Assembly (NCBI GenBank): GCA_963779755.1
Contig: CAVZZO010000001.1
Span: 640,001 to 704,000 of the forward strand
Length of the DNA: 64,000 nt
Direction of reading: 5' to 3'
Origin: an uncultured Gemmatimonadales bacterium
GTDB taxonomy: Bacteria > Gemmatimonadota > Gemmatimonadetes > Gemmatimonadales > GWC2-71-9
Part shown: piece by piece, positions 7,056 to 51,784 of the stretch
How the letters are laid out: the number at the start of each line of letters is the position of its first letter
How positions within the stretch are numbered: position 1 is the first letter of the stretch
The notes under the pieces: generated by a model
Told to the model about the DNA's origin: nothing
Database searches by the model: none
Seen by the model: the letters and a program-made list of their open reading frames with translations, nothing else
Made by a program: the position numbers and the translations under genes

Positions 7056-7176
7056 GCCTGGCGCATCTTGGACCTGCAAGGACCACCTCCTCCAGTCCCG
7101 AAATCATCTTACGAACCGCTACCGAATTCCACAACGTTGCCAACGGCCCCGCCGCGAGCAGGCCCGGCGGGCTCCG
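7056..7176 (-). other. Degenerate attI + Pc + intI 3' tail module (copy 4)
   Basis: TTGGACCTGC motif, TTGTGG-17-TAAGAT (7134-7106), tail RSPPGLL; core decayed to GCCAGGC. Confidence 0.7.
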
Positions 7177-7304
7177 CCGGCCGGGGTTGTCACGGCTGAG
7201 TACGCTGCCCAGCCGCCCCGAGAGAAGGCAGGTAGAGCACAGAAGTATCGCATCAGACTCTGGCAAGTCTGCCGCGGGCGGGGAAGGTGGCTGGCGGGGA
7301 TTCT

Positions 7305-7350
7305 TCATTTCAGTGACAGGCATGGCCGAGACACGGCTTCGGTCGAGAGG
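7305..7350. repeat. CTTCAG double-palindrome element (degenerate copy)
   Basis: Similar to copies at 31908, 37006, 39001 and 40457. Confidence 0.6.
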
Positions 7351-7369
7351 GGGATCCTGGCTCCAGTTC

Positions 7370-8282
7370 GAAAGGGCTGTCACCCTGAGGCCGCGCCAGC
7401 GGCCGAAGGGGCCGAAGCTGAAGGCTGGCTTCGGTCCCTTCGCTGCGCTCAGGGTGACCTAACCCCCGTCCCCCTTCCCGGTTGGGAAGGGGGGACCGGG
7501 GTGGCCAGTTCGGAGAGAAGATGGAACCGGGACGGGCGGTGCGAAAGGGCTGTCACCCTGAGGCCGCGCCAGCGGCCGAAGGGGCCGAAGCTGAAGGCTG
7601 GCTTCGGTCCCTTCGCTGCGCTCAGGGTGACCTAACCCCCTGTCCCCCTTCCCGGTTGGGAAGGGGGGACCGGGGTGGCCAGTTCGGAGAGAAGATGGAA
7701 CCGGGACGGGCGGTGCGAAAGGGCTGTCACCCTGAGGCCGCGCCAGCGGCCGAAGGGGCCGAAGCTGAAGGCTGGCTTCGGTCCCTTCGCTGCGCTCAGG
7801 GTGACCTAACCCCCTGTCCCCCTTCCCGGTTGGGAAGGGGGGACCGGGGTGGCCAGTTCGGAGAGAAGATGGAACCGGGACGGGCGGTGCGAAAGGGCTG
7901 TCACCCTGAGGCCGCGCCAGCGGCCGAAGGGGCCGAAGCTGAAGGCTGGCTTCGGTCCCTTCGCTGCGCTCAGGGTGACCTAACCCCCTGTCCCCCTTCC
8001 CGGTTGGGAAGGGGGGACCGGGGTGGCCAGTTCGGAGAGAAGATGGAACCGGGACGGCCGGCTCGAAAGGGCTGTCACCCTGAGGCCGCGCCAGCGGCCG
8101 AAGGGACCGAAGCTGAAGGCATAATCTCGGCCCCTTCGCTGCGTTCAGGGTGACAATCCAGTGCGCCTCCGGCGCTCGCCGCGTATCGGCCAGCATCCCT
8201 GTCACCCTGAGGCCGCGCCAGCGGCCGAAGGGGCCGAAGCTGAAGGTACGGTTTCGGCCCCTTCGCTGTGCTCAGGGTGACA
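7370..8282. repeat. Tandem REP/BIME-like mosaic, 173-174 bp period
   Basis: GTCACCCTGAG..CTCAGGGTGAC palindromes start at 7379, 7552, 7726, 7900, 8074 and 8201. The first four are each followed by a CCCCCTTCCC-GGGAAGGGGG hairpin. Confidence 0.95.
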
Positions 8283-8311
8283 ATAAGCTCTGTCTCCGCG
8301 CCCGGCCCCTC

Positions 8312-8345
8312 TTGACAACGCCAGGCAGTTTGACGATCATCAAAC
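8312..8345 (+). promoter_or_regulatory. Sigma70-like promoter with palindromic ArsR-type operator
   Basis: TTGACA-17-GATCAT; GTTTGA-N6-TCAAAC at 8328-8345, with a related copy at 8690-8707. Confidence 0.6.
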
Positions 8346-8346
8346 C

Positions 8347-8655
8347 ATGACGACCCGGGCCGCCCCTCCAACCCTCACCAGCCGGCAATTCGAGCTGGTG
8401 GCCAAGGCACTCGCCGATCCCCGGCGCATGCAGCTGCTGGAGGCGATCTCGAGCACGCGGGAGTTTCCCTGTTCGCGCCTGTGCGAGCTGTTCCCCGTCT
8501 CCAAGGGGACGATCTCCCACCATATGAAGGAACTGCTGCGGGCCGGCCTGATCAACGCGCGGCGGGAAGGCCAGCATCTGCTCTACGAAGTGCGCCGGGA
8601 GACGCTGGATGCCTATACCAACGAATTGATGAGACGCCTGGGCCAGGCCGGGTAG
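8347..8655 (+). CDS. ArsR/SmtB-family regulator
   Basis: KALADPRRMQLL..SKGTISHHMKELLRAGLI..REG. Confidence 0.93.
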   Translation: MTTRAAPPTLTSRQFELVAKALADPRRMQLLEAISSTREFPCSRLCELFPVSKGTISHHMKELLRAGLINARREGQHLLYEVRRETLDAYTNELMRRLGQAG

Positions 8656-16195: not shown

Positions 16196-16295
16196 ATCTA
16201 ACGACTCAGCATTCCGCTCACACGGAGGAGACGGACCAACGTGCCCAGCCCGGCGGGGGCTGTCCTGCCGGTGCGGAGTGCGATGACCGTCGGGA
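16196..16295 (-). other. Degenerate attC site
   Basis: ATCTAAC..GCATTCCGC / GCGGAGTGC..GTCGGGA inverted arms. Confidence 0.45.
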
Positions 16296-16467
16296 GTCAC
16301 GGCTAAACCAGGTTTGTCCGCAGCTTCACCAATTCCTCATGACCACCGTGGGATCATAGATCCGGTCGTTCACGGGGACACTCAGCGCCGTCGCAGCGGC
16401 CGGCGGGACGAAACGCGGCGAACGGCAGTGATCGCAGGATTCACGACTGGTCGAGAAAGGACACCGT

Positions 16468-16617
16468 ATGTTGCTCACGATCGCGGTCATCCTTGTAGTC
16501 CTCTGGCTTCTCGGCGCCTTCGTAGTGCCAGTGGGCGGCAGTCTGATTCATCTGCTTCTGGTCATCGCCCTGATTGCCCTCATTTGGCATTTCCTGAGCG
16601 GCCGGCGGAGTATTTGA
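16468..16617 (+). CDS. Small membrane protein (lmo0937/DUF5670-like)
   Basis: MLLTIAVILVVLWLLGAFVVPVGGSLIHLLLVIALIALIWHFLSGRRSI; RBS AAAGGA. Confidence 0.85.
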   Translation: MLLTIAVILVVLWLLGAFVVPVGGSLIHLLLVIALIALIWHFLSGRRSI

Positions 16618-16761
16618 CCATCGCCCTCGGGCGGGCCGCGAGTGCCGAGGCAGCCCCCATCCTGGCGATGTCATGACGGTGGGCCAACGACCCGCGTGGA
16701 TTCGCGCGGAGCGGCGGCGCCTTCGCAATCCACGGCCCCTCCCGGCTCAATGTCCGGTGGA

Positions 16762-17121
16762 TCAGGGAACCGAGCGGCTCTCCTCTCGCAAGACGGCCAG
16801 GCTGGTGGAGCCGAGCGTGAACAGCGCCTCGAACCTTCCTTTCACGCCGATCTTCGAGCCGGTGCGAGGGGGGCTGGCCTGCGCGCTCAGGACCGGCAGG
16901 GTGCCCGTCGCGTCCCGGACCTGATAAGCACCGAGCCCGAACCCTCCTGCCGCCTCCCGCACCTCCCCCTCGATGCGCACGGTCTTCCCATCGTAGCGTG
17001 CCGCGTTGTCGAGCAGATCGCCGATCGGCGTCACCGAAGCACATCCGGCGAGTAGGGCGAGGGTACCAGCCGACAGCACCAGGGGAATCAATCGACGGAG
17101 GCGGTGGAGAGCAGTAGACAT
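16762..17121 (-). CDS. OB-fold-like lipoprotein, probable cassette gene
   Basis: Lipobox LAGC; TVRIEGEV..YQVRDATGTLPV; RBS CAGGAG. Confidence 0.7.
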   Translation of the reverse strand: MSTALHRLRRLIPLVLSAGTLALLAGCASVTPIGDLLDNAARYDGKTVRIEGEVREAAGGFGLGAYQVRDATGTLPVLSAQASPPRTGSKIGVKGRFEALFTLGSTSLAVLREESRSVP

Positions 17122-17229
17122 AGTCTGCTCCTGACGGGAATCTCGTTGTCTCGCGGATGGGGTAAGCCGAATATGGCGTCGCGTGGGTTCGCAGCCAGAG
17201 GCCACCATGGACCCACAAGCCGGTACGTC

Positions 17230-17303
17230 CGTCTACTGCCCAAGCTAACCTGCCGCCCCGGAGTGAAGCGTAGGGGTGGTCAGGTTCATCGCCTTGTTGG
17301 GCG
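17230..17303 (-). other. attC site with a slightly degenerate R' box
   Basis: Minus strand GCCCAACAAGGCGATGAACCTGAC..GCAGGTTAGCTTGGGCAGTAGAC. Confidence 0.6.
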
Positions 17304-17485
17304 GTATGAAGCCGTGGCCGCCAGCACTGAAGTTGTGGGCTTCGCGATGGCTGACCGCCGCCCATTTTCTGGGAACCCGCGCTCGGAAGCCGGGCCGCCG
17401 GCCGGGCCAGCGGCTGAAGGGTTGGAGCTGAAGATATGGTTTCGGCCCCTTCGCTGCGCTCACGGCGATAACGTGCGTCCGGCGC

Positions 17486-18301
17486 TCACCGCTCACCGTC
17501 CAGGGGCGTGAAGCCCCGGTGCCCCACATGGAGGGAGACCGTCTTGCGGCGGGGAGATCCTCGTCCGGCTCGTCCCGCCCCTCGCGTTTCGCTCGAGGCA
17601 GGCTTCCCGTCTTCCCGCCTTCCCGTCTTCCCGCCTCTTTGCTGTCGGAGCAGCATCGCTGCGAGGACCGCGTACCAGAGGTTGGTGGCGTACTGGGACG
17701 CGCGCTCGCTCGCGCCCATCCACGGCGTCGCTTGATTCACCATCACGGCGGAGACGTACGAAAATCCGATGACCGCGAACACGGACGTGAAGAGGATGGT
17801 GGAAACGGTGTACACGCGGAACCAGCCCCGGTAGGCGACGGCACCCAGCACCACCGCCGTCAGCAGGAAGGGATCGATCGCCAGCAGCCCGTGCATCAGG
17901 TCCGTGAACGTGGGCTGCGTCCCCCGCATGTGCATCGGGAAGAAGTTCCAGAGCACCAGCGCGTCGAGCGCGTTCAGCGCCATCATCACGGCCATCACCC
18001 GAACCAGCCGCCGGCCGTTGGCCGACCTCCAGATCCCGATGGCAAAGAGCAGCAGCAGGGTGCTCGACAGGCTGAACAGCGCCACCACGAGCCGGCTGGT
18101 GGGCGCCCCGATCGCGAAGAGCTCGCTCACCGCCTGGTCCCGGTAGCTGAACCCGGGATAGAGACGCGCCGCGACGATGTCTGCCAGGGGGTAGAGCGCC
18201 GCGGCCACCATCCCGCATACCAGTAGCCAGCGCCGGAGCGAGGCGCCGGGCACCCCGGTTGACGCTGCTCTGCCGGGAGATTGCGTGCTTGCGCTGGTCA
18301 T
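17486..18301 (-). CDS. DUF998-like membrane protein
   Basis: [21 protein letters not shown]; several TM segments; PWMGASER. Confidence 0.8.
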
Positions 18302-18663
18302 TGGGCAGTTCCTCTCCTGGAAGCTGCCGGCATCCGGCGCAAGACGTCGTGAGGCTGACGTGAAGAAAGCGCGACCGGGCCTCAGGCGCGCTTCATGACT
18401 GTCGATCTTTGGTCTCAGTCGTCTTGGCGGCTGGCCCCGGGGCAGCTTTGGCGCCTTGCAGCGCAGGGCGATGCTCCCCCCCCGGTGCGGGAGGCCGCCA
18501 TGGGCCTTCGTTACCGGTTCATCGTGCCGTCCGACGCCCCGGTTCAGCGGCAGGCCGCGACCTGGCTTGAGCCGAACCCCGGAGGGCAAGCTCCATGGAG
18601 GTCGTTCCCTCAATTGGATTGGGGCGATAGGCGGGGATGACCTGAAACCCCAGGCTTTGGAGC

Positions 18664-20385
18664 TCAGCGTCTGACGCGGGCCGGCGCCGCCGGCCGAATC
18701 CGGTAGAGGTGAAGGCGCCAGAACGACGTCGGGCTTTCGAATACCCCCATCGGGACGAGACCGAGTGCCGGCGCGTTCCTGATCGCCGCCGCCGAAATCA
18801 GGTAGCCAGCGCCCATCTCGCGAAGCGCCCCGGTATTGATCTGCAATTCCTGGATCGGCCGGACGCTGTTCTTCGGCATCAACAGGCTCCGCAGTTCGGA
18901 TGAAAAAACGTAGACCCGGCTTCCCCAGTCGTCGTAGTACTGCCGCAGCCTCGCGCTCCGGGCCAGTTCGCCGGCGATTACCGCCCGGAACCGGTGCTTG
19001 TAGGCGAGCGGGTAGTTGCTCTGGTAGCTGTCCAGCGTGTAGAAGCCGTTGAACTGGGCGATCGCGGGGTGAAGGCCGACCGACACCACCCGGTACTCGG
19101 ACTGGGGCCGGCCGATCGTGGAGTCGATCCGCGCGAACAGCCCGGGGGCGAAGAACTGCCGGAACGTCGGCATGCCCGGGCACGCGAGGCCCACGTTGCA
19201 GACGAACTCGTCGCTTCGGCGGAGGGCATCGGCCGCCACGACGATGCATGTCAGCCCGACCAATGCCAGGCCGGCGCGGCCGTGGCGGCGCAGCGCCCGG
19301 GCCGCCGCCCCGAGCAGGACGAACCAGAGCACCGGAAGCAGCCAATAGAACCGCTCGTGCACCAGCCGGGCGGCCGGTACGATGCGGCCCAGCCGGGGAA
19401 TGACGACCGGCTCATAGACGGCATACGTCACCACGATCAGCAGGATCGCGGCGCCGAGCGCGGTCATCAGGCGGAGGGTCCGGGCCGAGCGGGACCATGC
19501 CGCCGCGATGGCGGCGCAAACGATGATGGGGATAGTCGTGAAGGCCCCGGTGTGATATTGCGTCGCGCTCAGGAGCGACCACGCACGGTTTGCCAGTCCG
19601 TGCAGGCTCGCATCCCGGAACCCCGCCAGCCGGAACTCTACGCGGTGGCTGACGAAGCTTCCGCTGAGGAACCCCTGAATCAGCGGCTCCGCCGTCGCGA
19701 CGTACCCCGCGGCGAGTACCACGCATGCTGCCCAGTATCGCGCGGGGAGCGTGCGTCCGGTCGCGATCCACCACGCACCGAGGAGTCCTGCCGCTACCAC
19801 GATGAACAGGCCCGACAGCACGAGCTGCGAGTAGAAAGGCACGCCGATCAGGATCGCCCAGTCAAACCAGCGGGATCGGTTCTTCCCTATGTTCAACAGC
19901 GCGAAAAGCAACAGGGGCTGGCCGGCCACGGAGAGCCCGTAGAGTGTGTAGAACGGCACGACGGCGAAGGCGGTCGCAAGGAGCAGCGGCTCCGGCCGGT
20001 TCCGTCCCGGGAGTACGTGGCGGCGGAGCAGCAGGTACATGCCGGCGAACGCCGTGAGATGGACCGTGACATAGTTCGCGACGAACGCCCGAAACGGCGG
20101 GAGGGCCGCAAACCACCAGGCCGTCGCGTCGAACCCGGAGCGGAGCGCCCTGCGAGGGAGGCCGTTCATGACCTGCGGCAGGACGGCGTTGCCGTGGAAC
20201 AGCGTGCCGGTCCTCGCGAGCAGGACCAGATAGAGGAATTCGCCGTCCAGTTGATCGTGCACCGTCACCACGGCGTCCCAGCCGCGGAGCAGGAGGGGCA
20301 GCAGGGCCGCCAGCAGCAGGGCCGTACAGGCGATCGCCAGCAGATGGTATGCAGTGCGGGACGGCAGCGCAGCGGGCTTGTCCAT
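18664..20385 (-). CDS. Polytopic membrane protein (DUF6044-like)
   Basis: [33 protein letters not shown] motifs. Confidence 0.8.
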
Positions 20386-37000: not shown

Positions 37001-37005
37001 TTTTT

Positions 37006-39941: not shown

Positions 39942-39999
39942 CCACACCGCGGCCAACGGCACCGCCGAGCCGGCCAGGCCGGCGCGAGGTGAGGACGCT

Positions 40000-40030
40000 A
40001 TGCAGAGACGCGATTTCCTGAAGACGCGCT
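40000..40030 (+). pseudogene. Tat-signal gene start truncated by a REP half
   Basis: RBS GAGG, then MQRRDFLKT, then CGCTCAGGGTGAC. Confidence 0.55.
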
Positions 40031-40499
40031 CAGGGTGACCTGACCCCCCTGTCGCCCCTTCCCTGTCGGGAAGGGGGAACCGGCGCCGGAAACCCCGTCG
40101 TCCCGAACCCCGCGAGCAACGCGAGCGGGTGAGGGACCTGATGCGCGTGTCTGGAGGGCCGGCCACAGCGTTCCGGGTGCCTTGCCTGGCGTCCGAAGCG
40201 CGTGAAGCATATCCCTCTCTCGCTGCGCTCGCTCGGGATGACAGGCGCCCTTGAGCCAAGGGAGGGAGCCGCCTTGCGGCGGGGGCCACGCTTCGCTTGT
40301 CACCCTGAGGCCGCGCAAGCGCCCGAAGGGGCCGATGCTGAAGGCATGATTTCGGCCCCTTCGCTGCGCTCAGGGTGACATTACGCGCGGGCGCCGGCGC
40401 TCATTTCCCTGGCGCCTGGCGCAGTCACCAGCGCCTCCGAAGTCGATCCACCACTTCACTTCAGTGAAAAAGCGCCGAGACTCGGCTTCAGCCGAGGGG
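40027..40499. repeat. REP cluster ending in a CTTCAG double-palindrome element
   Basis: REP halves and full copy at 40027, 40220 and 40299-40380; element at 40457-40499. Confidence 0.85.
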
Positions 40500-40500
40500 C

Positions 40501-40650
40501 GGCCGACGCCGACGCCATCCGGCCCGAGCACATGGTGGAGTTCTGGAAGGCCCTGGGCGGCGGCCGGCGCGATGCCGGGCTCGACGGCTCCCAGCGGCCC
40601 GCCGGCCAGCTCGCCATCGTGCCGGACACCACCCACTACTCGATTCCTGT
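40501..40650 (+). pseudogene. C-terminal fragment of an alpha/beta hydrolase
   Basis: ADADAIRPEHMVEFWKALGGGRRDAG..LAIVPDTTHY is homologous to the end of 30764-31687. Confidence 0.7.
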
Positions 40651-40784
40651 GGATCCGATGCTGCCGGAGGTCGTCGAGCGGTTCCTCGGAATCGGATAGA
40701 AGGCGGTTGCCCTGGGTGAGAGCTTGGGGCAGTAACAGAGATGTGGATTTCGCGGTCGGTCGTCCGATGGTCCCGGCTCATCTC

Positions 40785-40842
40785 GCGCCGCGCCTTTGGG
40801 AGCGGAGCCCAAGCGCCCCGCCGGTGCAAGCAGCTGTTAGAC
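40785..40842 (-). other. Partial attC (R'' side)
   Basis: GCAAGCAGCTGTTAGAC 14 bp after the toxin stop; the R' side is not found. Confidence 0.6.
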
Positions 40843-40855
40843 GGACCGCACGATC

Positions 40856-41146
40856 CTATTCCACGGGGCCGATGCTCGCCCGACGCCCATGGATCACAGC
40901 CAACACGGTCACGACGTCGGCTTGTGGCCGATAGATGATGCGATAGGATAGCTCGAGCAGCTCGCGAAGATCAGAATTGGAGCGTTCGGGAACTGGTCGG
41001 CCGACATTGGGAAAGTCTCGCAGTTGACCGGCCCGGCGGACGAGTCGGTGCACTGTGAGGTTGGCATATAGAGGAGAGGTCAGGGCAATGTAGGCCCGAA
41101 TGGCCTCCAGATGGGCTTGGGCCGTCTCAGTCCAGAGGAGCCTCAC
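40856..41146 (-). CDS. RelE/ParE-family toxin
   Basis: WTETAQAHLEAIRAYIA..FPNVGRPVPE..RELLELSYRIIY..IHGRR. Confidence 0.9.
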   Translation of the reverse strand: MRLLWTETAQAHLEAIRAYIALTSPLYANLTVHRLVRRAGQLRDFPNVGRPVPERSNSDLRELLELSYRIIYRPQADVVTVLAVIHGRRASIGPVE

Positions 41147-41331
41147 GCCGGGAGACTAAACCGTTTCGCAACGTCCTCATGGGAAATCACTCGCCCGGCT
41201 TCGGCATCGGCCAGGCCGCTATCAATGGCCTGCTGAACGTGAATCTCGTAGAGCAGGTCGTCCCACGAGGCTTGCTCGGCCATTCGTTCTACGATCTGGC
41301 GAGCGCGTTGCTTGATATCGGGAGCTGACAT
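41143..41331 (-). CDS. Cognate antitoxin
   Basis: SWDDLLYEI..GLADAEAGRVISHEDV; overlaps the toxin start. Confidence 0.85.
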   Translation of the reverse strand: MSAPDIKQRARQIVERMAEQASWDDLLYEIHVQQAIDSGLADAEAGRVISHEDVAKRFSLPA

Positions 41332-41396
41332 GAATCCCTCCGGGGTGCCTGAAATATGGCGTCCTTCAGGCCTGATGCCAAATCCGAGGGCGGGCC

Positions 41397-41495
41397 GCCT
41401 AACGGTTGGCGGTTGAGCGGTGATCCGCGCTCACAATATGCCAGCCATCCGACTGGTGCGCGGGCGCGGTTGACCGCTCCAAGCGCGTGTTAGGC
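41397..41495 (-). other. attC site
   Basis: GCCTAAC..TTGAGCGGT / ACCGCTCCAAG..GTTAGGC. Confidence 0.9.
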
Positions 41496-41523
41496 GGCGC
41501 GCACTGGCCGACAAGCACACAAC

Positions 41524-42749
41524 CTACCGAGCTGAGCCGTCTAGGCACGCTTGCAGCGGCGGTTCAGGTGATCCGAAGGCGATGCGAGCCCGCACATATT
41601 CGCGGTCCAAGAGGGTCGCTACCTCCAGCGTGGTTGAAGCCGTACTGCGAAGATCTGCTATGGAAGGGTCGAGACGATAGTTGACTCGCTGTCGCGCGGC
41701 TGTCAACACGGATCTTACTTGGGTGAGGATGCCAGTGACCGTGTCTCGAACTGGCACGAAGGGGACGGAGACTTCCGCAAGGCGGAAATGCGTGATGTGG
41801 AGGTCCGCTCTTGGTAGAAAGAACTCGATCACAGCGCTCATGGTTGACGCCGTTACGGATGTCAGCTTGGATAGGTCTCTCTTGCCAAACAAGCTATCCA
41901 TGAGGTGTCGCGAGTTGTCGAGGAGGTATGCGGCGGAGCAGAGATCCCTCCGGGCACTATCTGCCTGAGCAACGCGACGCGATCCTCGGGCTGCGCTGGG
42001 TGCAGCGTTAGCGATGACTGCGGGCGTGATGCGTTCGCGAAGACCTCAGCGAGGGAACGGGAACTGACAGTGCTGTCCAGAAGTGCAGTGGCATACCGTA
42101 CTGGGACGGCAAAATTCAGCGCTTGGCCGCCCTGGAGGTAGGCCGTCGAGATCGCAATGACCGCCCCAGAATCGTTGAGGACAGGGCCGCCGCTCGAGCC
42201 CGGGCTTATCGGCGCGGATATCTGCAGTAGCTGGCGGCCTTCGACCACGCGATGTGCGCTGACAATCCCGTCCGTGACTGTTTGTGATAGACCGAGAGGG
42301 CTGCCAATAGCAACGATACGGCTGCCCACGGGAGGAAGCGTGGTGCTGGTGGATAACGTCGGCAGACTGGCTCCACGGATCCTGATAATCGCTACATCTG
42401 CGGTTGGATCAGCAGCGAGTGCGGTGACGTTGCTGAAACGCTCGCCTGTTGCCAGAAGGACGGCAGCCGATGTGGCACCAGCCATGACATGATAGTTGGT
42501 GACGACCACTCCATCCGGGACTATAATGAAACCGCTCCCTTGTCCTACTGTGTCACCTCGCGCATCAACAGCGAGGATTGTAACTGTGGCCGGAATGGCG
42601 CGCTTCGCAAGTTGGACGGTAGTTAGAGGGCGCTGGGCTGCTGCCATGGCGCTATAGGCGACAAGGCCGACGAGCACCGCAGTCGTTCTGATCGCTGCTT
42701 GCAAGTATGAACTCCGAAGCGGGTAGGCGCCACTCGGTAGTTGAGGCAA
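41524..42749 (-). CDS. Trypsin-like (S1C) serine protease, secreted, probably frameshifted near 41900
   Basis: GSGFII, TNYHV, DVAII, ISPGSSGGP; the 41524-41901 ORF is the likely continuation. Confidence 0.8.
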
Positions 42750-42779
42750 CGCCGCGTGGCATCGGGGCCAGAGCGAGTA

Positions 42780-43061
42780 TCAAATGCAGGAGAACACATG
42801 TTCCTCTCGAAAATCAATAGCAGATCCTGCAGTGAGCCCTTTGAAGTCAGCGGCGTTCCAGTCTTCGAAGCCAATTATGGTGCCGGAGATCGCTCCTCCG
42901 AGAACACGCACTACTTGAACGACGAGGATAACCCGCCCGTCCCGAAGGGAGACTTGGGCACCAACACGGATGGTCGAAGGGACTGCCGTACCGGGAGCCT
43001 GAAAGCCCCCGAACACGATAGATCTGTCTGCACGGGTGGCGAGTGCAAGCGGTTCATTCAT
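42780..43061 (-). CDS. Hypothetical cassette protein
   Basis: About 93 aa ORF co-oriented with the array. Confidence 0.55.
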   Translation of the reverse strand: MNEPLALATRADRSIVFGGFQAPGTAVPSTIRVGAQVSLRDGRVILVVQVVRVLGGAISGTIIGFEDWNAADFKGLTAGSAIDFREEHVFSCI

Positions 43062-43306
43062 GGGTCGCTTCGACTCCGAAGACTTTAGAATGCGGCTGAA
43101 TGCGATTTGGCACAATGCGGCTACTTGGCACCGGTACCCGACTGGGCTGTGAACCGGCGCGCGAGCTTCAAGTCCTTGTGCGCTTTATGCTTGCGTGTGA
43201 TCTTGTGATTCCTTGCTCGGGCAATGCGGCAAAAAAGAGGCCGGAGGCCGTGCGCGCATTTGCCGCGCGGTGTTGGGTGACTGCGTTTCGTACGAAAGGC
43301 CGCGCC

Positions 43307-43410
43307 GCCTAACGAAATGCGTTTCAGCCGCGAAGGCGCGGCCCTAGCGCCCGGAGGGCTTTTTTGAGCGGGTGCGCCGCGCCTTCGCCGTCTGCAAACG
43401 CTTGTTAGGC
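43307..43410 (-). other. attC site
   Basis: GCCTAAC..GCGTTTCAGCCGCGAAGGCGCG / CGCGCCTTCGCCGTCTGCAAACGCTTGTTAGGC. Confidence 0.92.
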
Positions 43411-43709
43411 CTCCCGGCCAGCCGGCTCCGGCGACGTTCGGTCTCGACCCGATCGGCAAGGTACACCTTGAGCAGACTCTGATAGGGGACATCCCGCTCG
43501 TTGGCGAGCAACTTGAGCTCGGTAAGCAGGGTATCGGGCAGCCGGACCGAAATGGCTGTGGACGAAGGCCGGAGATGGGGAAAGCGCATCACCCGTGCCT
43601 TCGACCAATCCACATATTCGGTCGAGTCATGCGTGGCCCAGAAGTCGCGCTCCTCGTCCTCAGTCCGGAAGGTCGGGATGTTCTTCAATGCTCGCTTGGG
43701 CTTGGGCAT
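43344..43709 (-). CDS. brnA: BrnA/CopG-like antitoxin
   Basis: IPTFRTEDEERDFWATHDS..ISVRL..VPYQSLLK. Confidence 0.88.
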   Translation of the reverse strand: MPKPKRALKNIPTFRTEDEERDFWATHDSTEYVDWSKARVMRFPHLRPSSTAISVRLPDTLLTELKLLANERDVPYQSLLKVYLADRVETERRRSRLAGRPNKRLQTAKARRTRSKKPSGR

Positions 43710-44013
43710 ACTGGTGCCGCTCCTTCCGATTCATGTCCCGGGCCGCGATCACGCGAATCAGAGATCCGCGCACCGTGAAGACGAGGTAGAGCCTCCGGTT
43801 CGCGAGGGTCCGGCCGAGCGCTTGCCACCGGAGCTCGGTGCCGGAGTGCTTCGCATCGAATGCGGCGACCAGAGGTTCCTGAAAGAACGCCTGTTCGCAC
43901 TCCCCCGGCTCCACGTTGTGGCGCGCCAGCACTTTGGGCGCGTTGCCGGCGTCCCATTCAAAGCCGGTGCAGCGGCCCAGAATCGCGTAGGCGTCCGGCG
44001 GCTCTCCCGTCAC
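43660..44013 (-). CDS. brnT: BrnT-family toxin
   Basis: GFEWDAGN..KHS..LVFTVRG..IRVIAARDM. Confidence 0.9.
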   Translation of the reverse strand: MTGEPPDAYAILGRCTGFEWDAGNAPKVLARHNVEPGECEQAFFQEPLVAAFDAKHSGTELRWQALGRTLANRRLYLVFTVRGSLIRVIAARDMNRKERHQYAQAQASIEEHPDLPD

Positions 44014-44019
44014 TCAGGA

Positions 44020-44048
44020 AGTATATGTGGGGTATATACGCCAGTCAA
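44020..44048 (-). promoter_or_regulatory. Sigma70 promoter of the TA cassette with palindromic operator
   Basis: TTGACT-17-TATACT; GTATAT-N7-ATATAC. Confidence 0.8.
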
Positions 44049-44071
44049 CCGGTAGGCTCCGCCATCCGGAG

Positions 44072-44202
44072 GCCTAACGAAGTGCGCGTCAGCTGCAGCG
44101 CGATGCTTTAGGTCTTCACAAACTACGCTTCCTTAGCCGCGCCGCTAGGAACTCCGGATGATGCGACCGGCCCGCGCGACTGGCCTGCCAGCTGGACGCG
44201 CT
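44072..44202 (-). other. attC major part; its R'' box is displaced to 46788-46795
   Basis: Paralogous to the attC at 48001-48140 but stops at GACGCGCT. Confidence 0.85.
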
Positions 44203-44203
44203 C

Positions 44204-44658
44204 ATGTACGCGGATCCTTTCGGGCTGCTTGCCCAGGATTGTTGTATCGAAACGGGGGATTGGCGAAAGGATAACCTGCTTCACCCTGCTGTTACAGCGG
44301 CAAGAGAGACAACCCGATGCTGGGAGTAGCTGTGGGTCTCCTGGCCGTTGCAGGTGGGGCCGAACTGGCTGCTCCCAGGTTATTTGCCGCGGCCACCGCT
44401 GCTCTTCCTAAGGTACCGTTTGAGAAATTCCAGGACTGGGGACGAAATGTTGTCCAATGGGGCCGTGGGGCAGCGGGGGCAATTCAGCGGGTTTCTGAAG
44501 TGACGGCCGAGCAGGCCTCTAAATTGGATCCACAGAAAGTGAAGATGGCTCGCGACTTCTACCAGAAAGCTGTTGATGCTGGCCGAGGGGGAGCCGCCGC
44601 ACCTGAACGAGTAAAGCTGATGGAACGCATTTTAGACCTGCAGCAGAGAACCCATTAG
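44204..44658 (+). CDS. Orphan Rhs C-terminal toxin-like domain (one frameshift near 44275)
   Basis: Starts (L)MYADPFGL (Rhs DPxGL motif); the C-terminus WGRG..RDFY..RVKLM resembles DUF4951-like tips. Confidence 0.6.
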
Positions 44659-44704
44659 TGGCTCGGTCCGGTCTATTCGAGCATTGCAACACGGAGGAAG
44701 AGCC

Positions 44705-44953
44705 ATGCTGGAAGCAGCGGTCACACTTCGGCTTACGAATAGATGCGAAACTGCGCGGAAGCTCGTGATTGAGCCATGGACCACCGAGTTTCGACTGCAA
44801 CCTGGGCACACTTACGACTTGGTGATATCAGGGGACCTTGGCCTCCCCTTAGAGGTTGAGTTCGAGGACGACGAACTAACCGTATACACTTTCGATTCCG
44901 CCAATGCCTCCTTCAAGATTTCCGAAGGCGGGGCTGAACTTAAACCACTGTAG
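44705..44953 (+). CDS. Putative immunity protein
   Basis: Small acidic ORF with RBS GGAGG directly after the toxin tip. Confidence 0.55.
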   Translation: MLEAAVTLRLTNRCETARKLVIEPWTTEFRLQPGHTYDLVISGDLGLPLEVEFEDDELTVYTFDSANASFKISEGGAELKPL

Positions 44954-45437
44954 GAGCCCGGCCCTGTCTAGCCTGGGGCGCTCGGGGCGCCTCCGGGTTG
45001 TCGGGCCTGAACTCCGAGGGGTCGGGTCTAGTAGGAGCCTCGCGGGCTGCCGCGCGTGGCGGACCTCGGCCGGCGGAAAAGGAAAGTGGTGGGGGCCCCA
45101 CGAGTTCAGCGGAACCCATCGGCTCCAGACCTGCCGCGAGCCGGCTCCCTCGTCGGGCGTCATGCGCCCACGGGAGCAGACGGGGTCACCCCACCGGCTC
45201 CAAGGTGCTACCCGGTCCTTCGATTGTCAAAGAGCGCCGCGTTCCGCGTGCCGGCGGGATCCTGGCACCACCCTCATAGGTCGTTGAGGCTCGGGGCCTC
45301 CCACATCTTCATGGATGCTCTCCGATCCGCGGCCGGGCGGCCAGCAACTCTGTGCGCGGAACTCACCGAAGACGCCGGCGGCTCAAGGCAAATAGAGGGC
45401 GGCCCGGCGCGCACGCGCGGCTCCCCCCGGTCTCCGA
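44954..45437 (-). ncRNA. Long 3' non-coding end of the IS110 element, candidate bridge/seek RNA region
   Basis: About 480 nt without a credible ORF after the recombinase stop; the 5' leader is only about 83 nt. Confidence 0.45.
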
Positions 45438-46703
45438 CTATTCGATCACCACCGGCTCTGCGTGATGCCGCTGGGTCTCCCAGCGCTCCCGGTCGAACGG
45501 CTGGCCCGACTGGAGCACGGCCAGGAGGAGCGGCACCAGCTTGCGGGCCACCGCGCAGACCGCCTTGGTCCGGAGCCCGCCATTGCGGGCCAGCAGGGCC
45601 TGGTAGACCCCGGTACAGCCCCCGGGGCTGGCACCAGCGGCCGCCGAGCAGAAAGAGTTGGCGGCGCAGCAACGGCCGGCCCCGTTTGGACTGCTTGCGC
45701 CGGCCCTGCACCGTGCCGCTGGAGCGCTCGACCAGATTCATGCCTGCGAGTTTCAGCACCTGGCGGGGATGAGTGAAGCGCTCCGGAGCGCCCAGCTCGG
45801 CCACGATCGTGGCCGCACAGGTGGCGCTCACCTCGGGAATGGTGGTCAGCGCCTTGGCCGCGGGGCACTGCTCCACCGAGCGCGGCGATCTGCTGGTCCA
45901 CCTCCGCGAGTTGCGCCCGCAGCAGGTCCCAGCGGGCCAGCAGCTGCTGGATCTCCAGCGCCGCTCGGGAGCGGCGCCGGCCAGGGCGACACTGGTGCGG
46001 GCGGACTCGCGCAGGACGTGGAGCTGCCCTGGGCTCACGTGGCCCCGCGAGACGGACCGCGCCAGGCGAGTCACCGCGGCCGGGGCGGCCGCCAGGAAGT
46101 CCTGCGGCAGCGGCCAGCGCGCCAGCAGGGCGCGCGGCGTGGGCTTGCGCACCTGCGAGAAGTGCGTCAGGAACTCGGGCCAGGCCAGGTCGAGCAGGCT
46201 CTGGAGACGGTTCTTGAACCGGGTTTCCTCGACGGTGAGCCGATGACGGTGGGTGGTGAGCAGCCGCAGCTCGAGATACGGGGGCTGCAGCGCCGGATAT
46301 CCCACGAAGATCCCCAGGCTCACCAGCTTGCAGATCTCGGCGGCATCCTTCGCGTCCGTCTTGTTGGGGCTGTTATCCTCCAGTTCCTTGGCCCGCTTGG
46401 TGTGGGCCGGCAGGATATTGACCAGCGCATAGCCGCGCGCCCGCAGGCACTCGGCAAACGTGAAGCCGTGATGGCCGGCGAACTCCAGCCCCACCAGCAT
46501 CTGGCCGGGCCGGATGCCGGGAAACCAGGCCGTCAACTGCGCGCGGCGGCCTCGAAGCCCGCGCGGCTCACCGGCACTCGGACCGGCTTCGTGCGGCGCC
46601 CATCGGGGCCCTGAGCAACCAGCACGTGGACCCGCTTCGCGGTATCCACGCCTACGTGAACGGGGAACGTGCGGGCATAGGCAGACTTTTCGTCGGGGGT
46701 CAT
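45438..46703 (-). CDS. IS110-family recombinase/transposase (several frameshifts)
   Basis: DEDD residues VGVD, GLE, KTDAKDA; Tnp20 motif LAG..SSG..SKRG; ARKL. Confidence 0.9.
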
Positions 46704-46789
46704 GGCGCGGCTCCGGGTGGAGGGAATCACAGGAGTCGCGGAAGGAGCTACGGGCCGCGCAGCGGCGTCAAGCGGGTATAGATGTCTAG

Positions 46790-47530
46790 TTAGGTAGCAC
46801 CACGAATCAGACGGCGGCCGTGAGGAGTGAGTTCCGCGTGTCTGACGCTCCCAATCTGGTAGTCCCCGGGACCTCCTGTGGTAATGATTCCGAGGTCTTT
46901 CAAGCCGCGCAAGATCAGATCAAGTCGCGCAACCGGGATGCCCGTCACCTCAAGCACCGTGGTCGTGTGAAGTCGGTACTGGTCTGGCGTCAGGGTGCGG
47001 AACTGGGCAAGTACCGCAGCCACCTCGGCGGCCGAGTCCACATCTGGGAGTAGCGACGGAGCAAGGGCGATGTATGTGCCAGGCACGAGGCGCGTTCGCG
47101 CGATTCCGACAGCGTGATTCAAGTCTGGATCAATACGAATGAAGCCGAAATCGCGAAGATCCTCCGCTGCCTCCAAGTACTCATGCGGCGAAACATCCAA
47201 ATCGGTAATGGCATCCTCTGCTTCAGCAAACTGGAACAGCTGGCTGGCCTCGCGATAGAGGCAGTAGGCCAGCAACCGCAGGGGCGTACCAGAAAGGCGG
47301 ACGAATGGAACTTGAATTGCTTCGAGCGCGGTCACGCGCTCTTCGAGACTGCCAACCCGGACACCGAGTTTCGATACCTGCTCATTCGCTACGCCGTAGC
47401 CGCCCAGGGCGGCAAGACGCGCTACCAAGGACGCCACGCCCGAAATCGGCTCGACAACCAAGGCCACGCCAGTGAGTGTCCACGCAGCGATGGTCGGCCA
47501 ATCGAGGCTCGAATCCTTTGCTGAGGTCAT
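46790..47530 (-). CDS. Hypothetical cassette protein
   Basis: MTSAKDSS start just after the attC at 47546; stop codon in the R'' box. Confidence 0.8.
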   Translation of the reverse strand: MTSAKDSSLDWPTIAAWTLTGVALVVEPISGVASLVARLAALGGYGVANEQVSKLGVRVGSLEERVTALEAIQVPFVRLSGTPLRLLAYCLYREASQLFQFAEAEDAITDLDVSPHEYLEAAEDLRDFGFIRIDPDLNHAVGIARTRLVPGTYIALAPSLLPDVDSAAEVAAVLAQFRTLTPDQYRLHTTTVLEVTGIPVARLDLILRGLKDLGIITTGGPGDYQIGSVRHAELTPHGRRLIRGAT

Positions 47531-47545
47531 CCCGCCTCGTAGTGC

Positions 47546-47685
47546 TACTAACGAAGTGCGTTTCAGCGGCGGCGCGATGCCCCGCTCCCTCACATCCGAC
47601 GCTTCCTTACCGCGACCGCTAGATGTCCCAGAAATGCACCAGCGGGCTGCAGCACCGTGCCCGCCGCTGCAAACGCTTGTTAGCT
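47546..47685 (-). other. attC site
   Basis: TACTAAC..GCGTTTCAGCGGC / GCCGCTGCAAACGCTTGTTAGCT. Confidence 0.92.
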
Positions 47686-48000
47686 GCCGGCCGCAATGAC
47701 AATTTCGGGTGCGATGACGCTGCCGGTATGTGCGGAGCCCCCGCGCCGGGAGACCGGGCCGCCAACCGGGAGCCTCGGCGGGGCGGGAGAACGCTGGACG
47801 CCTCCGAACCTGCTCGGCGCACCTTCCTTGCCATGGAGCGCCCCGCGGAGAGAAACCTTGGGCGGCATCGCGGAGCCTTCCAGGCGTCCCGCGCAAGGAG
47901 GCCGGTGCCGCCTCACCGCTACCAACCAACTGCAGAGTTCCGGCGGCACCACCAGGCGCCCACCAAGAGATCAGCACTGGGCGGCCCGACTGGCGCGTGC
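47686..48000 (-). other. ORF-less cassette, diverged copy
   Basis: Colinear with 49950-50262 and 50405-50717. Confidence 0.8.
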
Positions 48001-48140
48001 AGCTAACGAAGTGCGCGTGTGCTGCAGCGCGATCCCTCAGGATTTCACAAACCTACGCTTCCACAGCCGCACCGCTAGGAGGCCCGAGTGGGGGCCGGCG
48101 GCCCGCGCGACCGGCCTGCAGAACGACGCGCTTGTTAGGC
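48001..48140 (-). other. attC site
   Basis: AGCTAAC..GCGCGTGTGCTGCAG / CTGCAGAACGACGCGCTTGTTAGGC. Confidence 0.9.
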
Positions 48141-48142
48141 CC

Positions 48143-49226
48143 CGCGGATTCATATACTAAGTGCAACAACGGAAGGCGACGAAAGCGGTGATCTGACAGC
48201 AAGTAGACTTCTCTGTCCGCCAAGACAAGGAAGCCGACCATGAACTACCGCCAGATCACCGCCGCTGAACGGTACACCCTCGGCCTGCTTCGCCGACAGG
48301 GGCTGACGGCGGCAGCCATCGCGCGCCTCCTCGGTCGCCACCGCAGCACCATCGGCCGCGAGGTCCGGCGCAACCGCACCCACCACGACGGGGGCTACCG
48401 CCCCCAGCTCGCCGACTGGTACGCGCGGGGCCGGCGGAGCCACTCGCGCCGCAACACCCGGTTCACCGCCACGGATTGGGCGGAGGTGGAACGCCTGGTG
48501 CGCGAGGACTGGAGCCCCGAACAGATCGCCGGCCGCCTCGCCGCGGACGGACACCTCGCCATCAGTCACGAGACGATCTATCGGTACGTCTGGGCGGACC
48601 GCGCGGACGGCGGCACGCTCTACCAGCACCTCCGCGGCGCCCGCAAGCAGCGCCGCAAACGGTACGGGCGCTACGACAGCCGGGGCCGCCTGGCCGGGAA
48701 GCGGATGATCACGGAGCGGCCTGCGATCATCGAAGGCCGCAGCCAGGTCGGTCACTGGGAAGGCGACACCGTCCTCGGCGCGGGACAGGCCGGCCCCTGC
48801 GTGCTGACGCTGGTGGAACGGAAGACCGGCTATCTGATGCTCGGCCAACTCCACCAGCGGACGACCACCGCCGTCACGCGCCGGGCGACCCAGCTGATTC
48901 ATCGGGAAGCTCGCCCGGTGCGCACCATCACCGTGGACAACGGCACCGAGTTCCATGACTACGCGGCGATCGAACGGGAGACCGCCACGCGCTTCTACTT
49001 CGCCACGCCGCACCACAGCTGGGAGCGCGGAACCAACGAGAACACCAACGGCCTGCTGCGGCAGTACCTCCCGAAAGGCCACTCTATGGCGCACCTCACC
49101 CAGGCCGCGTGTGATCGCCTCGCCCGCAAACTCAACCGCCGACCCCGGAAGCGCCTCCTCTACCGCACCCCGGAGGAATGCTATGCACGATGAGGCTCAG
49201 TGTTGCACTACAAACTTGATATCAGA
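48143..49226 (+). mobile_element. IS30-family insertion sequence
   Basis: Imperfect terminal IRs ..AGTGCAACA / TGTTGCACT.. flanking the transposase. Confidence 0.9.
48240..49193 (+). CDS. IS30-family DDE transposase
   Basis: WSPEQI, SHETIY, GHWEGDT, TVDNGTEF, WERGTNENTNGLLRQY. Confidence 0.96.
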   Translation: MNYRQITAAERYTLGLLRRQGLTAAAIARLLGRHRSTIGREVRRNRTHHDGGYRPQLADWYARGRRSHSRRNTRFTATDWAEVERLVREDWSPEQIAGRLAADGHLAISHETIYRYVWADRADGGTLYQHLRGARKQRRKRYGRYDSRGRLAGKRMITERPAIIEGRSQVGHWEGDTVLGAGQAGPCVLTLVERKTGYLMLGQLHQRTTTAVTRRATQLIHREARPVRTITVDNGTEFHDYAAIERETATRFYFATPHHSWERGTNENTNGLLRQYLPKGHSMAHLTQAACDRLARKLNRRPRKRLLYRTPEECYAR

Positions 49227-49229
49227 CGG

Positions 49230-49799
49230 CTATTGAGAGCGACATTGGAGGCCCTCGCCCGTCAGCGCTCGGAGGACCTTCAGCATGCGCTGATCATCAC
49301 GCGAGCAAAAGACCTCGGGATTGTCCGCTCCGGCCGCACCACTTGCTCCGTCGAATCGCCATTCTAGAAGGAAGGAGCGGCCATCATCCACTAGGAAGAT
49401 GGAAGGTTCCTGCGGCGCGGGCGGTAGCTCGCGTAAGCCTGCGCGCTGTGCCGCAGCAATTCGACTCTCCCAGTTGGCCGAGTCGGGCAATGCCTGATGG
49501 AACGGTACGTGCGCTGTATTCGTTGCGTACTCCTCGGCATGCCAACGCCGTCCCTCCAGCAGGAACCGGTACAGGCGGATGCCAGTGAGGCCGAAGCCAT
49601 CCCACAGGCGAATCTCCGCGTCTACACCAGGGCGCGAATCCGCAATACTGGGTAGAGCTAGGTTGCGAGCGAGTTCTGTGGCATACGGCGAGAGTTCCGC
49701 AGCCCCTGCCCGCGTCGAGCGCGGACTCGGTTGCTGCCCAGCGGCGACCGCGGTTGGCAGCGCCAGGAGCCCGAATATGAAACTCAGTCGGATCGCCAT
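49230..49799 (-). CDS. Secreted hypothetical cassette protein
   Basis: Signal peptide; starts 9 bp after the attC R' box. Confidence 0.8.
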   Translation of the reverse strand: MAIRLSFIFGLLALPTAVAAGQQPSPRSTRAGAAELSPYATELARNLALPSIADSRPGVDAEIRLWDGFGLTGIRLYRFLLEGRRWHAEEYATNTAHVPFHQALPDSANWESRIAAAQRAGLRELPPAPQEPSIFLVDDGRSFLLEWRFDGASGAAGADNPEVFCSRDDQRMLKVLRALTGEGLQCRSQ

Positions 49800-49807
49800 A
49801 TCAGTCC

Positions 49808-49949
49808 GCCTAACGGTCTGCGTTTCAGCGGCGGCGCGATGCCCCGCTCCCTCATAATCCTACGCTTCCTTACCGCGACCGCTAGATGTCCGAGCAATGC
49901 ACCAGCGGCCTGCAGCACCGTGCCCGGCCGCTGCAAACGCTTGTTAGCT
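49808..49949 (-). other. attC site (142 bp)
   Basis: GCCTAAC..GTTAGCT with CGTTTCAGCGGC / GCCGCTGCAAACG arms. Confidence 0.92.
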
Positions 49950-50723
49950 GCCGGCCGCAATGACATTCTCGGTTGCGATGACGCTGCCGGCAGGTGCGGA
50001 GTCCCCACCCCGGGAGGCCCGGCCGCCCCCTCGGAGCTCCGGCGGGGCGGAAGATCGCTGGACGCTTGTCCACCGGGAACGACGCTGACCCTGCCCCGAC
50101 CGCCCCGCGGGGAGGGGCCCCGGGCGGCATGGCGGAGCCTGCCAGACGACCCGCGCAAGGAGGCCGGTGCCGCCTCACCTCCGCCAACCAGCTGAGGAAC
50201 TCCGGCGGCACCACCAGGAGCCCACCAAAAGATCAGCACTGGGAGGCCCGGCTGGCGCGTGCAGCTAACGGTCTGCGTTTCAGCGGCGGCGCGATGCCCC
50301 GCTCCCTCATAATCCTACGCTTCCTTACCGCGACCGCTAGATGTCCGAGCAATGCACCAGCGGCCTGCAGCACCGTGCCCGGCCGCTGCAAACGCTTGTT
50401 AGCTGCCGGCCGCAATGACATTCTCGGTTGCGATGACGCTGCCGGCAGGTGCGGAGTCCCCACCCCGGGAGGCCCGGCCGCCCCCTCGGAGCTCCGGCGG
50501 GGCGGAAGATCGCTGGACGCTTGTCCACCGGGAACGACGCTGACCCTGCCCCGACCGCCCCGCGGGGAGGGGCCCCGGGCGGCATGGCGGAGCCTGCCAG
50601 ACGACCCGCGCAAGGAGGCCGGTGCCGCCTCACCTCCGCCAACCAGCTGAGGAACTCCGGCGGCACCACCAGGAGCCCACCAAAAGATCAGCACTGGGAG
50701 GCCCGGCTGGCGCGTGCAGCTAA
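49814..50723 (-). repeat. Two identical tandem 455-bp ORF-less cassettes (array positions 1 and 2)
   Basis: Exact 455-bp period bounded by GTT core sites. Confidence 0.92.
50263..50404 (-). other. attC site (142 bp)
   Basis: AGCTAAC..GTTAGCT, internally identical to 49808-49949. Confidence 0.92.
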
Positions 50724-50804
50724 CAAATATTGGACCTGCGTACCTCCCATTGAACTCCCGACCAACCAGAAATTCATCTTACGGTCCGCAGTCTAATTCC
50801 ACAA
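50718..50804 (-). promoter_or_regulatory. attI site and Pc-like promoter downstream of intI
   Basis: GTTAGCT core without an attC partner arm; TTGTGG-17-TAAGAT at 50804-50776. Confidence 0.85.
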
Positions 50805-50806
50805 CA

Positions 50807-51784
50807 TCACCCCGTCTGGCCCAGCAGGTCCGCGGGACTCCGTACCCCCAGGCCGCCCCGGTTCAGGACATGGGTGTAGATCATCGTGGTCGAGACATCC
50901 CGGTGGCCCAGGAGCTCCTGTACGGTCCGGATGTCGTAGCCCGCCTCCAGCAGATGCGTGGCAAAGCTGTGCCGCAGGGTGTGACAGGTCGCCCGTTTGC
51001 CGATACCGCTGGCCCGCACCGCCTCCGCCATGGCCCGCTGCACTGCGGTCTCGTGGTAGTGATGCCGGCGCAGCTGCCCCGAGGCCGCGTGACGATGCCG
51101 CCGCCGAGCCGGAAAAACCCACTGCCAGGGCCAGGAGCATCCCGCTCGCGGATACTTCCGCTCCAGGCCATCGGGGAGCTCGACCCAGCCCGCCCCCTCA
51201 GCCAGATCCCGCCGGTGCCGCTCCCGCACCCGCTCCAGGTGGAGATGCAACGGCTGACGCACCGACTGCGCCAGGACGGTGACCCGATCCTTGGCGCCTT
51301 TGCCTCGGCGCAGCCGTATCTCCCCCCGTTCCAGGTCCAGATCCTTGACCCGCAAGGTGAGGCACTCAAGCAGCCGCAGGCCACTGCCATAGAGCAGGGC
51401 GGCTACCAGCGCCGAGACGCCACGCAGGTGTGCCAGTACGCTCCGGACTTCTCCCGGCGTCAGCACGACCGGCAGGCGCACCGGAGCCTTCGGCCGGGGA
51501 ATGCTCCCCATGTCCACCAATGGCCGCTCCAGGACCTCGGAGAAAAGGAACGAGAGGGCCGCCTGCGCCTGCGCCTGAGTTGAGGCGGAAACGTGCCGCT
51601 CGATGCGCAGATCGGCCAGGAATTGGAGTACTTCTTCCCGCCCCAGTTCCGCCGGAGGACGGAGGCCGTGAAACCGCACAAACCGCCGAACCCAGCCCAC
51701 GTAGGCCTCCTCGGTCCGCGGGCTGAAGTGCCGTAGCCGCAGGTTGAGCCGCAGGGCCTGCAGCAGTTTCGGTTTGGACTGCAT
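50807..51784 (-). CDS. intI: Integron integrase
   Basis: [13 protein letters not shown], integron-specific insert [43 protein letters not shown]. Confidence 0.97.

Follow-up and report, generated by a model that had tools for sequence, protein, structure and literature searches.

The 64,000-nucleotide window analysed here (the whole stretch, positions 640001-704000 of contig C1, CAVZZO010000001.1) comes from the genome of an uncultured Gemmatimonadales bacterium (GCA_963779755.1; 4.23 Mb, 4 contigs, 97% complete, 0.69% contamination) and holds what would be stacked platforms of reverse integrons, of which one is complete and three are relics. Four co-oriented modules lie on its minus strand, each made up of the end of the gene for an integron integrase (intI), a pair of promoter-like boxes and a recombination site, attI. 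Along that strand every module runs from the intI end through TTGTG(G/A), 17 nt, TAAGAT and a further 27-36 nt to GCAGGTCCAA and then the core (Table 1). In copies 1 to 4, numbered from high to low coordinates, the -35 box starts at 50804, 36923, 23201 and 7134, and the crossover G stands at 50724, 36846, 23120 and 7062. The start-to-start distances of 16067, 13722 and 13881 (repeat family D16; 13.7-16.1 kb) agree with the spacing of about 14-16 kb given in a preliminary description of this DNA.

That description had reported the four modules and their boxes, and both hold at the whole-genome level. The pattern TTGTGR-17-TAAGAT occurs exactly four times in the 4.23 Mb, and a profile built from the four modules, which recovers its own source copies by construction, matches just these four (E 2e-44 to 1e-34), the next match in the genome having an E of 1.2. 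The four IntI C-terminal peptides are likewise those quoted before. An independent IntI-tail profile made from 94 loci finds the tail of copy 2 at 29 bits and, at a threshold of 8 bits, misses those of copies 3 and 4, so the identification of these two tails rests on DNA homology to copies 1 and 2. The body of intI had been described as missing from three copies: among copies 2-4, none of which has an intact intI of its own, tblastn retrieves a single trace, the 17-residue tail at copy 2. A decay of the pre-core motif in the 7.1-kb copy had also been described; GCAGGTCCAA is intact in all four copies, and it is the core that has decayed there, with GCC in place of GTT. The window gave no match in Rfam and tRNA scans.

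Copy 1 is a reverse integron, with intI co-oriented with the cassettes and attI at the 3' end of the gene. The locus combines a full-length IntI, an attI with inverse core and GTT, and an attC array in one orientation. The best matches of this IntI among named genomes are from Gemmatimonadales and Gemmatimonadetes (66-69%), and it scores 354 with NF011946, under the cut-off of 435. RHRHY-type residues, whose roles we assume, are visible in its open reading frame (ORF). Array 1 has seven whole attC sites (66-155 bits; six of the seven are in the training set of the attC model) and ends with an R''-only half site at 40842. The statement that there is one intact integrase is true of the locus, not of the genome. 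Contig C3 carries a second intact IntI, 57% identical to that of copy 1 (TIGR02249, 448 bits), in a reverse integron (362000-406150) with about 60 attC sites of 140 bp and an attI that has 5 nt between inverse core and GTT in the same register. Array 1 and the C3 array have cassettes in common at up to 100% identity, and one ORF-less family includes both the first C3 cassette and the first cassettes of copy 1; the idea of a single IntI as sole server of the platforms is not supported in view of this second integron. In the genome, the cassettes that come first at copies 2-4 occur once each.

Three lines of sequence evidence show that the pre-core motif is attI: its position behind intI elsewhere, an enrichment of its geometry, and the start of a cassette at the crossover of copy 2. 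With 0-1 mismatch, the motif lies 80-100 bp behind the intI end in eight other genomes (G130, G163, G181, G219, G234, G289, G338, and G354); at two mismatches the search is noisy, with 37 of 401 genomes vs. 26 for the reversed control. The arrangement of inverse core, 4 nt and GTT is found behind intI at 24 of 91 loci vs. 0.4 in shuffles, and a 5-nt spacing at five of the 91, with shuffles below 1. With CCCTAAA as its L box (PMC4792948), attI1 presumably has a spacing of 5 nt, counted on an attI1 sequence taken in part from PMC12901181. An exact attI motif also stands at 4612-4630 of locus L122 (G338:C3), with neither a detected intI piece nor boxes of the window type.

Copy 2 is a real attI that was used recently, because the crossover is where its first cassette starts and this cassette is also known from other DNA, at 88-99% identity. 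Contigs from three metagenome runs, each of a different study, match this alpha/beta-hydrolase cassette (35701-36845) at 97-99%, in two of the runs up to 36848. Its boundary was checked at 26 loci, two of which aligned at E<1e-10 and one of which (L139) was informative: there, an 88% homologue lies directly behind a whole attC, with the homology starting at 36847. A pattern for the 5' end of the cassette had no match in metagenome contigs, and a DNA search of 151 genomes of the class returned just 65-66% protein-level relatives. The cassette has lost its attC and carries a frameshift or read error at 36216, where one G fewer than in three foreign copies splits the hydrolase ORF; the position lies in a G run, and a read error is possible. 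The RibD_C cassette has the only whole attC of array 2 (34986-35049), and at the end of the array an R'' box (33646-33655) is accompanied by 144 bp of an IS110 end, with the same sequence as in the array-1 element. The intI tail of copy 2 retains every invariant IntI residue and has one change of its own (+3 ambiguous) in 75 nt, vs. 16 (+3) in copy 4, some of these at invariant residues. Judged by its tail, copy 2 seems to have lost its own integrase recently, in which case its cassettes are explained without activity in trans.

The attI of copy 3 is intact in geometry and the DNA behind it is decayed. Compared with the start of copy 1's first cassette, this DNA has an anchored score of 22, reached in none of 2000 shuffles, and an unanchored score of 65, which is not significant (shuffle maximum 74). 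Half attC sites of array 3 lie at 22811, 17302 and, weakly, 16196, against a background of 2.6 per 64 kb at the threshold. Arrays 2 and 3 have one full attC or halves each, with the intact intI at a distance of at least 14 kb. As its GTT core is lost, copy 4 cannot serve as an ordinary entry point. The proposal that the relic platforms kept both promoter and insertion site is borne out for the promoter-like boxes in all of them and for the attI core in copies 2 and 3, and fails for the core of copy 4. Between 23.3 and 33.5 kb there is no attC half at threshold, and much of the spacing between the copies is ordinary accessory DNA and palindromic repeats, not a recognisable cassette array. Palindromic repeats are found at or near all three relic junctions; before copy 2 they comprise D12 at the junction itself (37003-37056) and a tandem array (38159-38947).

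The modules of copies 1 and 3 are 82% identical and those of copies 2 and 4 73%, while the other pairs range from 57 to 68%. Copies 2 and 4 form a clade with a bootstrap of 95 (unrooted tree of 12 sequences and about 160 columns), and copy 1 is 66% identical to copy 2, similar to its 56-64% identity to platforms of other genera. By these identities and this tree, the copies are two alternating lineages in the order A, B, A', B', which rules out a simple age series. The word 'successive' in the preliminary description had implied such an age order, and copy 1 is nearer to copy 3 than to copy 2. Serial ageing, with copy 4 the oldest and copy 2 the youngest duplicate of copy 1, is ruled out by the same data. 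A segmental duplication of 28-30 kb giving A, B, A', B' was rejected as well: the distances fit, but no further homology between the halves was found save repeat families.

As the preliminary description had suggested, relatives were searched for modules with Pc and attI and without intI, and such modules were found. In 20 genomes, chosen for many tail hits or the attI motif and searched mostly by tail, co-oriented tails within 25 kb occur in three (G289, G163, and G130). G289 has a locus (L102) where an intact intI, its attI and one gene are followed, 1.1 kb on, by intI residues 241-330 with a 91%-identical platform, and a second locus (L108) with two decayed platforms. In G163, four platforms of two lineages lie within 9 kb without a whole intI (L104), with two further platforms at L103 and two tails 23 kb apart at L105/L106; in G130, two tails are 0.5 kb apart (L118). 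Across loci, intI is truncated at points from about residue 50 to 323. Of 97 intI loci taken without motif or tail bias, 34 extended 3 kb or more downstream; a second tail was present in one of these, from a member of the Chlorobiaceae (L095). L095 consists of an intact intI, cassettes, a gene that we take to be serB-like from its sequence, a decayed tail, attI and cassettes. Upstream of the intact intI, too, there are remnants of the serB-like gene (84-88%), and by this evidence L095 is shown to have arisen by tandem duplication and reciprocal loss. A search with just the attI motif led to L121, where boxes and attI remain without any intI piece, before intact-looking genes. Comparison of the window's flank genes with the loci of relatives gave no informative synteny. 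Stacking looks like a recurring way in which old capture sites persist with a likely promoter, not a one-off and not a new type of machine.

The boxes are likely to be a cassette promoter, and we treat them as a putative Pc. At the corresponding place, five further platform types have boxes TTACCG/TATGCT, TTGCGG/TACAAT, TTTACA/TACACT, TTGCGG/TAACGT, and TTTCCA/TACAAT, nearly all 17 nt apart. Across these types the outer T, A, and T of the second box are constant and its middle is variable (TT....-17(18)-TA...T), as is expected of a sigma-70 promoter. In copy 4, none of the 12 box positions is changed vs. 24-34 of the 143 positions elsewhere.

We consider it probable that reverse platforms were duplicated or inserted here, that intI was then deleted from its 5' end with promoter and attI spared, and that the promoter was probably under selection while attI went on to decay. 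The layout lends itself to this, as intI, Pc and attI follow in a row and Pc and attI come right after the 3' end of the integrase gene. Each relic would once have headed a complete integron, as is evident for copy 2 and presumed for copies 3 and 4. Newer platforms would have been placed upstream of older ones, here perhaps through a tandem duplication or because integron DNA of the second lineage was inserted. Surplus intI would be deleted from the 5' end up to or just before the promoter, a pattern seen in the relatives, where it extends to a module without any tail. The promoter would probably be kept for its continuing transcription of the genes behind it, and attI would decay at leisure, with copy 2 recently used, copy 3 intact but old, and copy 4 dead. 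Daily cassette traffic would pass via copy 1 and C3; either intact IntI may now and then capture cassettes at copies 2 or 3, although none of the observations requires it.

Several observations weigh against this account. No duplicated flank beyond genome-wide repeat families connects the copies in the window, so that duplication is a candidate route here, and no contig of the sequencing runs spans the region. Both the choice of relatives and the tail-based search favour finding tails. A half attC at the junction, considered as a general signature, was rejected: it is significant at two of 20 junctions and borderline at four, and at none of the window's three relic junctions. As for the promoter, the boxes match the E. 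coli consensus at 7/12 positions (8/12 in copy 2), and a consensus scan at 9/12 over 36000-52200 lists neither those of copy 1 nor those of copy 2. Promoter geometry over 25 more distant attI loci was observed once vs. 0.8 expected, which is no clade-wide enrichment, and the chance of the box retention in copy 4 is about 0.04-0.11, suggestive at most.

The alternative that fares best, although we hold it to be unlikely, is a maintained multi-entry integron, in which copies 2 and 3 retain their attI sites as secondary, expressed entry points that the copy-1 or the C3 IntI regularly serves in trans; the unit of truncated intI, Pc and attI may even be moved by IntI like an attI-type cassette. The match of copy 2's first cassette to contigs of three runs, which ends at the crossover, would fit this, as would the identical IS110 ends in arrays 1 and 2 and the intact cores of copies 2 and 3. 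Two functional attI1 sites beside one intact intI1 are on record in In104 (PMC3285670), and delta-attI cassettes recombine and cross between classes (PMC12901181). However, the barely decayed tail of copy 2 means that its own integrase may have inserted its cassettes, the first cassette of copy 3 is a fossil, the core of copy 4 is dead, and the cassettes common to array 1 and C3 have no near-identical copies at the relic sites. In addition, IntI1 excises the DNA between two attI sites in direct orientation (PMC4792948), which speaks against a long coexistence of fully active sites.

We give still less credence to the view that the relics are debris with no present function, promoter included, and that the boxes look conserved since the platforms diverged while they were active. 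The weak consensus match, the lack of clade-wide enrichment, the statistically not strong box retention and the setting in a repeat-rich plasticity zone are all in keeping with it. It sits poorly with copy 4, which decays at invariant IntI residues and at GTT and not in its boxes, with L121, which retains exactly Pc and attI before intact-looking genes, and with the intact ORFs behind copies 2 and 4. Least credible of all, and very improbable, is an assembly chimera of integron loci from several strains: the genome was probably assembled from a metagenome and has strain variation or repeats in the vicinity of other attC sites (the 12.3 kb that C2 and C4 have in common being an example) and no run spans the region, but the copies are 57-82% identical, far under haplotype level, each has its own flank, the genome has 4 contigs and 0.69% contamination, and the same architecture occurs in independent assemblies.

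Some further features of the window and the genome deserve mention. The ORF-less 455-bp cassettes (in the window at 47686-48003, 49950-50265, and 50405-50720) form a family of three copies in the window and about nine on C3, 74-100% identical and without an Rfam match. The family heads the arrays of copy 1 and C3, perhaps that of copy 3 too, and may be a promoter or RNA cassette. The toxin-antitoxin cassettes (BrnT/CopG-type and ParE) have promoter-like sites of their own (44020-44048 and 41353-41381), stronger than the putative Pc. An IS110 end imitates a lost attC half (44066-46794), and the same 2.7-kb block occurs twice in the C3 array at 95%. Upstream of intI there is an AT-rich stretch (51870-51930) with two imperfect GAAC-N4-GTTC-like words; none of six LexA-type patterns that we assumed matched as a box common to lexA, recA and both intI upstream regions. 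Palindromic intergenic repeats form tandem arrays with a 174-bp unit (7377-8283, 38159-38947, and 55857-56273) beside scattered single copies, and five of the 12 genome matches of repeat family D12 are inside the window. Contigs C2 and C4 have 12.3 kb in common at 99.8%, with attC sites near the ends and without intI, and may be attC clusters of at least two sites with no integron integrase nearby (CALINs) or strain variants.

Table 1. Features of the integron region, in window coordinates; a slash marks the crossover.
Feature	Position	Strand	Remarks
intI, copy 1	50807-51808	-	Intact integron integrase, 333 aa; TIGR02249 425 bits, cut-off 265; same direction as cassettes
Promoter-like boxes, copy 1	50776-50804	-	TTGTGG-17-TAAGAT, putative Pc; start 3 bp past intI stop; homologous boxes in other genera
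attI, copy 1	50718-50739	-	GCAG + GTCCAAT, 4 nt, G/TTAGCT; crossover after 50724
Array 1	40760-50723	-	About ten cassettes: three ORF-less 455-bp, two toxin-antitoxin, protease, hypotheticals
attC sites, array 1	50263-50404, 49808-49949, 48001-48140, 47546-47685, 44072-44211, 43307-43410, 41397-41495		
IS30-family element	48131-49227	+	In array 1
IS110-family element	44952-46794	-	Inside attC of array 1
Non-cassette DNA before copy 2	37003-40700		Palindromic intergenic repeats; + strand carries HTH regulator and AHSA1 gene; - strand, two genes that match no family
intI tail, copy 2	36949-36999	-	17 codons; vs. copy 1, 6 synonymous and 2 non-synonymous codon differences
Promoter-like boxes, copy 2	36895-36923	-	TTGTGA-17-TAAGAT
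attI, copy 2	36840-36861	-	Intact geometry, GTCCAAT-CTGC-G/TTAGCC; use shown by cassette boundary at crossover
Array 2	33507-36845	-	alpha/beta-hydrolase cassette, RibD_C cassette, two more ORFs, R'' box, IS110 end
intI tail, copy 3	23219-23245	-	LRSPADLLG; joined to cut palindromic repeat 23240-23300
Promoter-like boxes, copy 3	23173-23201	-	TTGTGG-17-TAAGAT
attI, copy 3	23114-23135	-	Intact geometry, GTCCAAT-ACCT-G/TTAGCC
Array 3, decayed	16196-23119	-	Fossil ORF-less cassette, YdeI/OmpD gene, Ig-like and DUF genes
Fossil ORF-less cassette, array 3	22811-23119	-	Start resembles that of first copy-1 cassette
intI tail, copy 4	7152-7205	-	Decayed, SVLSRDNPGRRSPPGLL; repeat D12 and tandem repeat array 0.1-1.1 kb in front
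Promoter-like boxes, copy 4	7106-7134	-	TTGTGG-17-TAAGAT; unaltered despite decayed tail and attI
attI remnant, copy 4	7056-7077	-	Core mutated, GCC for GTT
SnoaL-like gene	6434-6895	-	First gene after copy 4; may once have been a cassette; attC not significant

In the usual models of integrons, an array has a single attI and a single Pc, and its distal cassettes are silent. Should reverse integrons commonly leave relics made of promoter and attI behind, distal or orphan cassettes could stay expressed and maybe still be extended, and standard finders, which look for half of an intI profile or an exact attI of class 1-3, would count the relics among CALINs or overlook them. One attI is available here in four natural variants which, together with the young pairs in relatives, offer substrates to define attI and Pc in a poorly studied integrase group. 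A bolder generalisation, which we put forward as speculative and rather doubtful, would make the intI tail, promoter and attI a small portable module of reverse integrons that selection maintains and that is copied or brought in time and again, across platform lineages too, giving one region several entry sites, each with a promoter and served in trans; many cassette clusters of Gemmatimonadota, Chlorobiota and their kin that seem to have no integrase would then be headed, unrecognised, by such modules. Precedent in clinical integrons for much of this moderates the surprise.

Gemmatimonadota are among the known integron hosts (PMC8618304), and reverse integrons have been described in Treponema denticola and Chlorobium phaeobacteroides (PMC3607928, PMC6557892, PMC4889954). 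The window resembles these chromosomal integrons in having an intI transcribed toward attI in the cassette direction, together with IntI, attI and attC cassettes. About a third of intI genes are reported to be pseudogenes (PMC2426708), partial loss of attC via slippage or illegitimate recombination has been reviewed (PMC8876359), and integrons of Xanthomonas decay likewise (bioRxiv 10.1101/2025.06.18.660453). CALINs are common, and a detectable intI pseudogene was reported for 15 of 279 under a 50%-coverage rule (PMC4889954). CALINs and intI pseudogenes are comparable to the relic platforms in that cassette clusters have a lost or decayed integrase and may be served in trans (PMC4889954, PMC2426708, bioRxiv 10.1101/2025.06.18.660453); in the window, the boxes and attI are still recognisable. 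The window tails of 9-18 codons are far under 50% profile coverage, so such relics would be missed by that rule (PMC4889954).

In the literature searched, which left most subscription journals and supplements outside, there was no account of relic platforms lying in series in a chromosomal integron of the reverse type. A close counterpart is In104 of SGI1, in which two functional attI1 sites lie behind an intact intI1 and behind a groEL-intI1 fusion (PMC2297512, PMC3285670), and which has in common with the window serial co-oriented attI sites, one intact integrase beside truncated intI (in In104 the groEL-intI1 fusion), and non-cassette genes in between. As described there, In104 is mobile and of ordinary layout, with its two sites in 441-bp direct repeats and ISCR3 between them, whereas the window is chromosomal and reverse, has four sites that are 57-82% identical, and keeps the 3' end of intI. 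The locus is not a complex class 1 integron of the In104 type, given an IntI score under the NF011946 cut-off, its reverse layout and the absence of a 3'-conserved segment or ISCR genes among the 55 proteins scanned. Delta-attI cassettes, which are functional and exchanged across integron classes (PMC12901181), likewise place an attI inside an array; they hold up to 238 bp of the attI2 region and are recombinogenic (PMC12901181). In these cassettes attI replaces the attC of the cassette, whereas the modules of the window have an intI tail and boxes, with non-cassette DNA in front. Stacked relic platforms are apparently undescribed in this form, with clear clinical precedents in In104 and the delta-attI cassettes.

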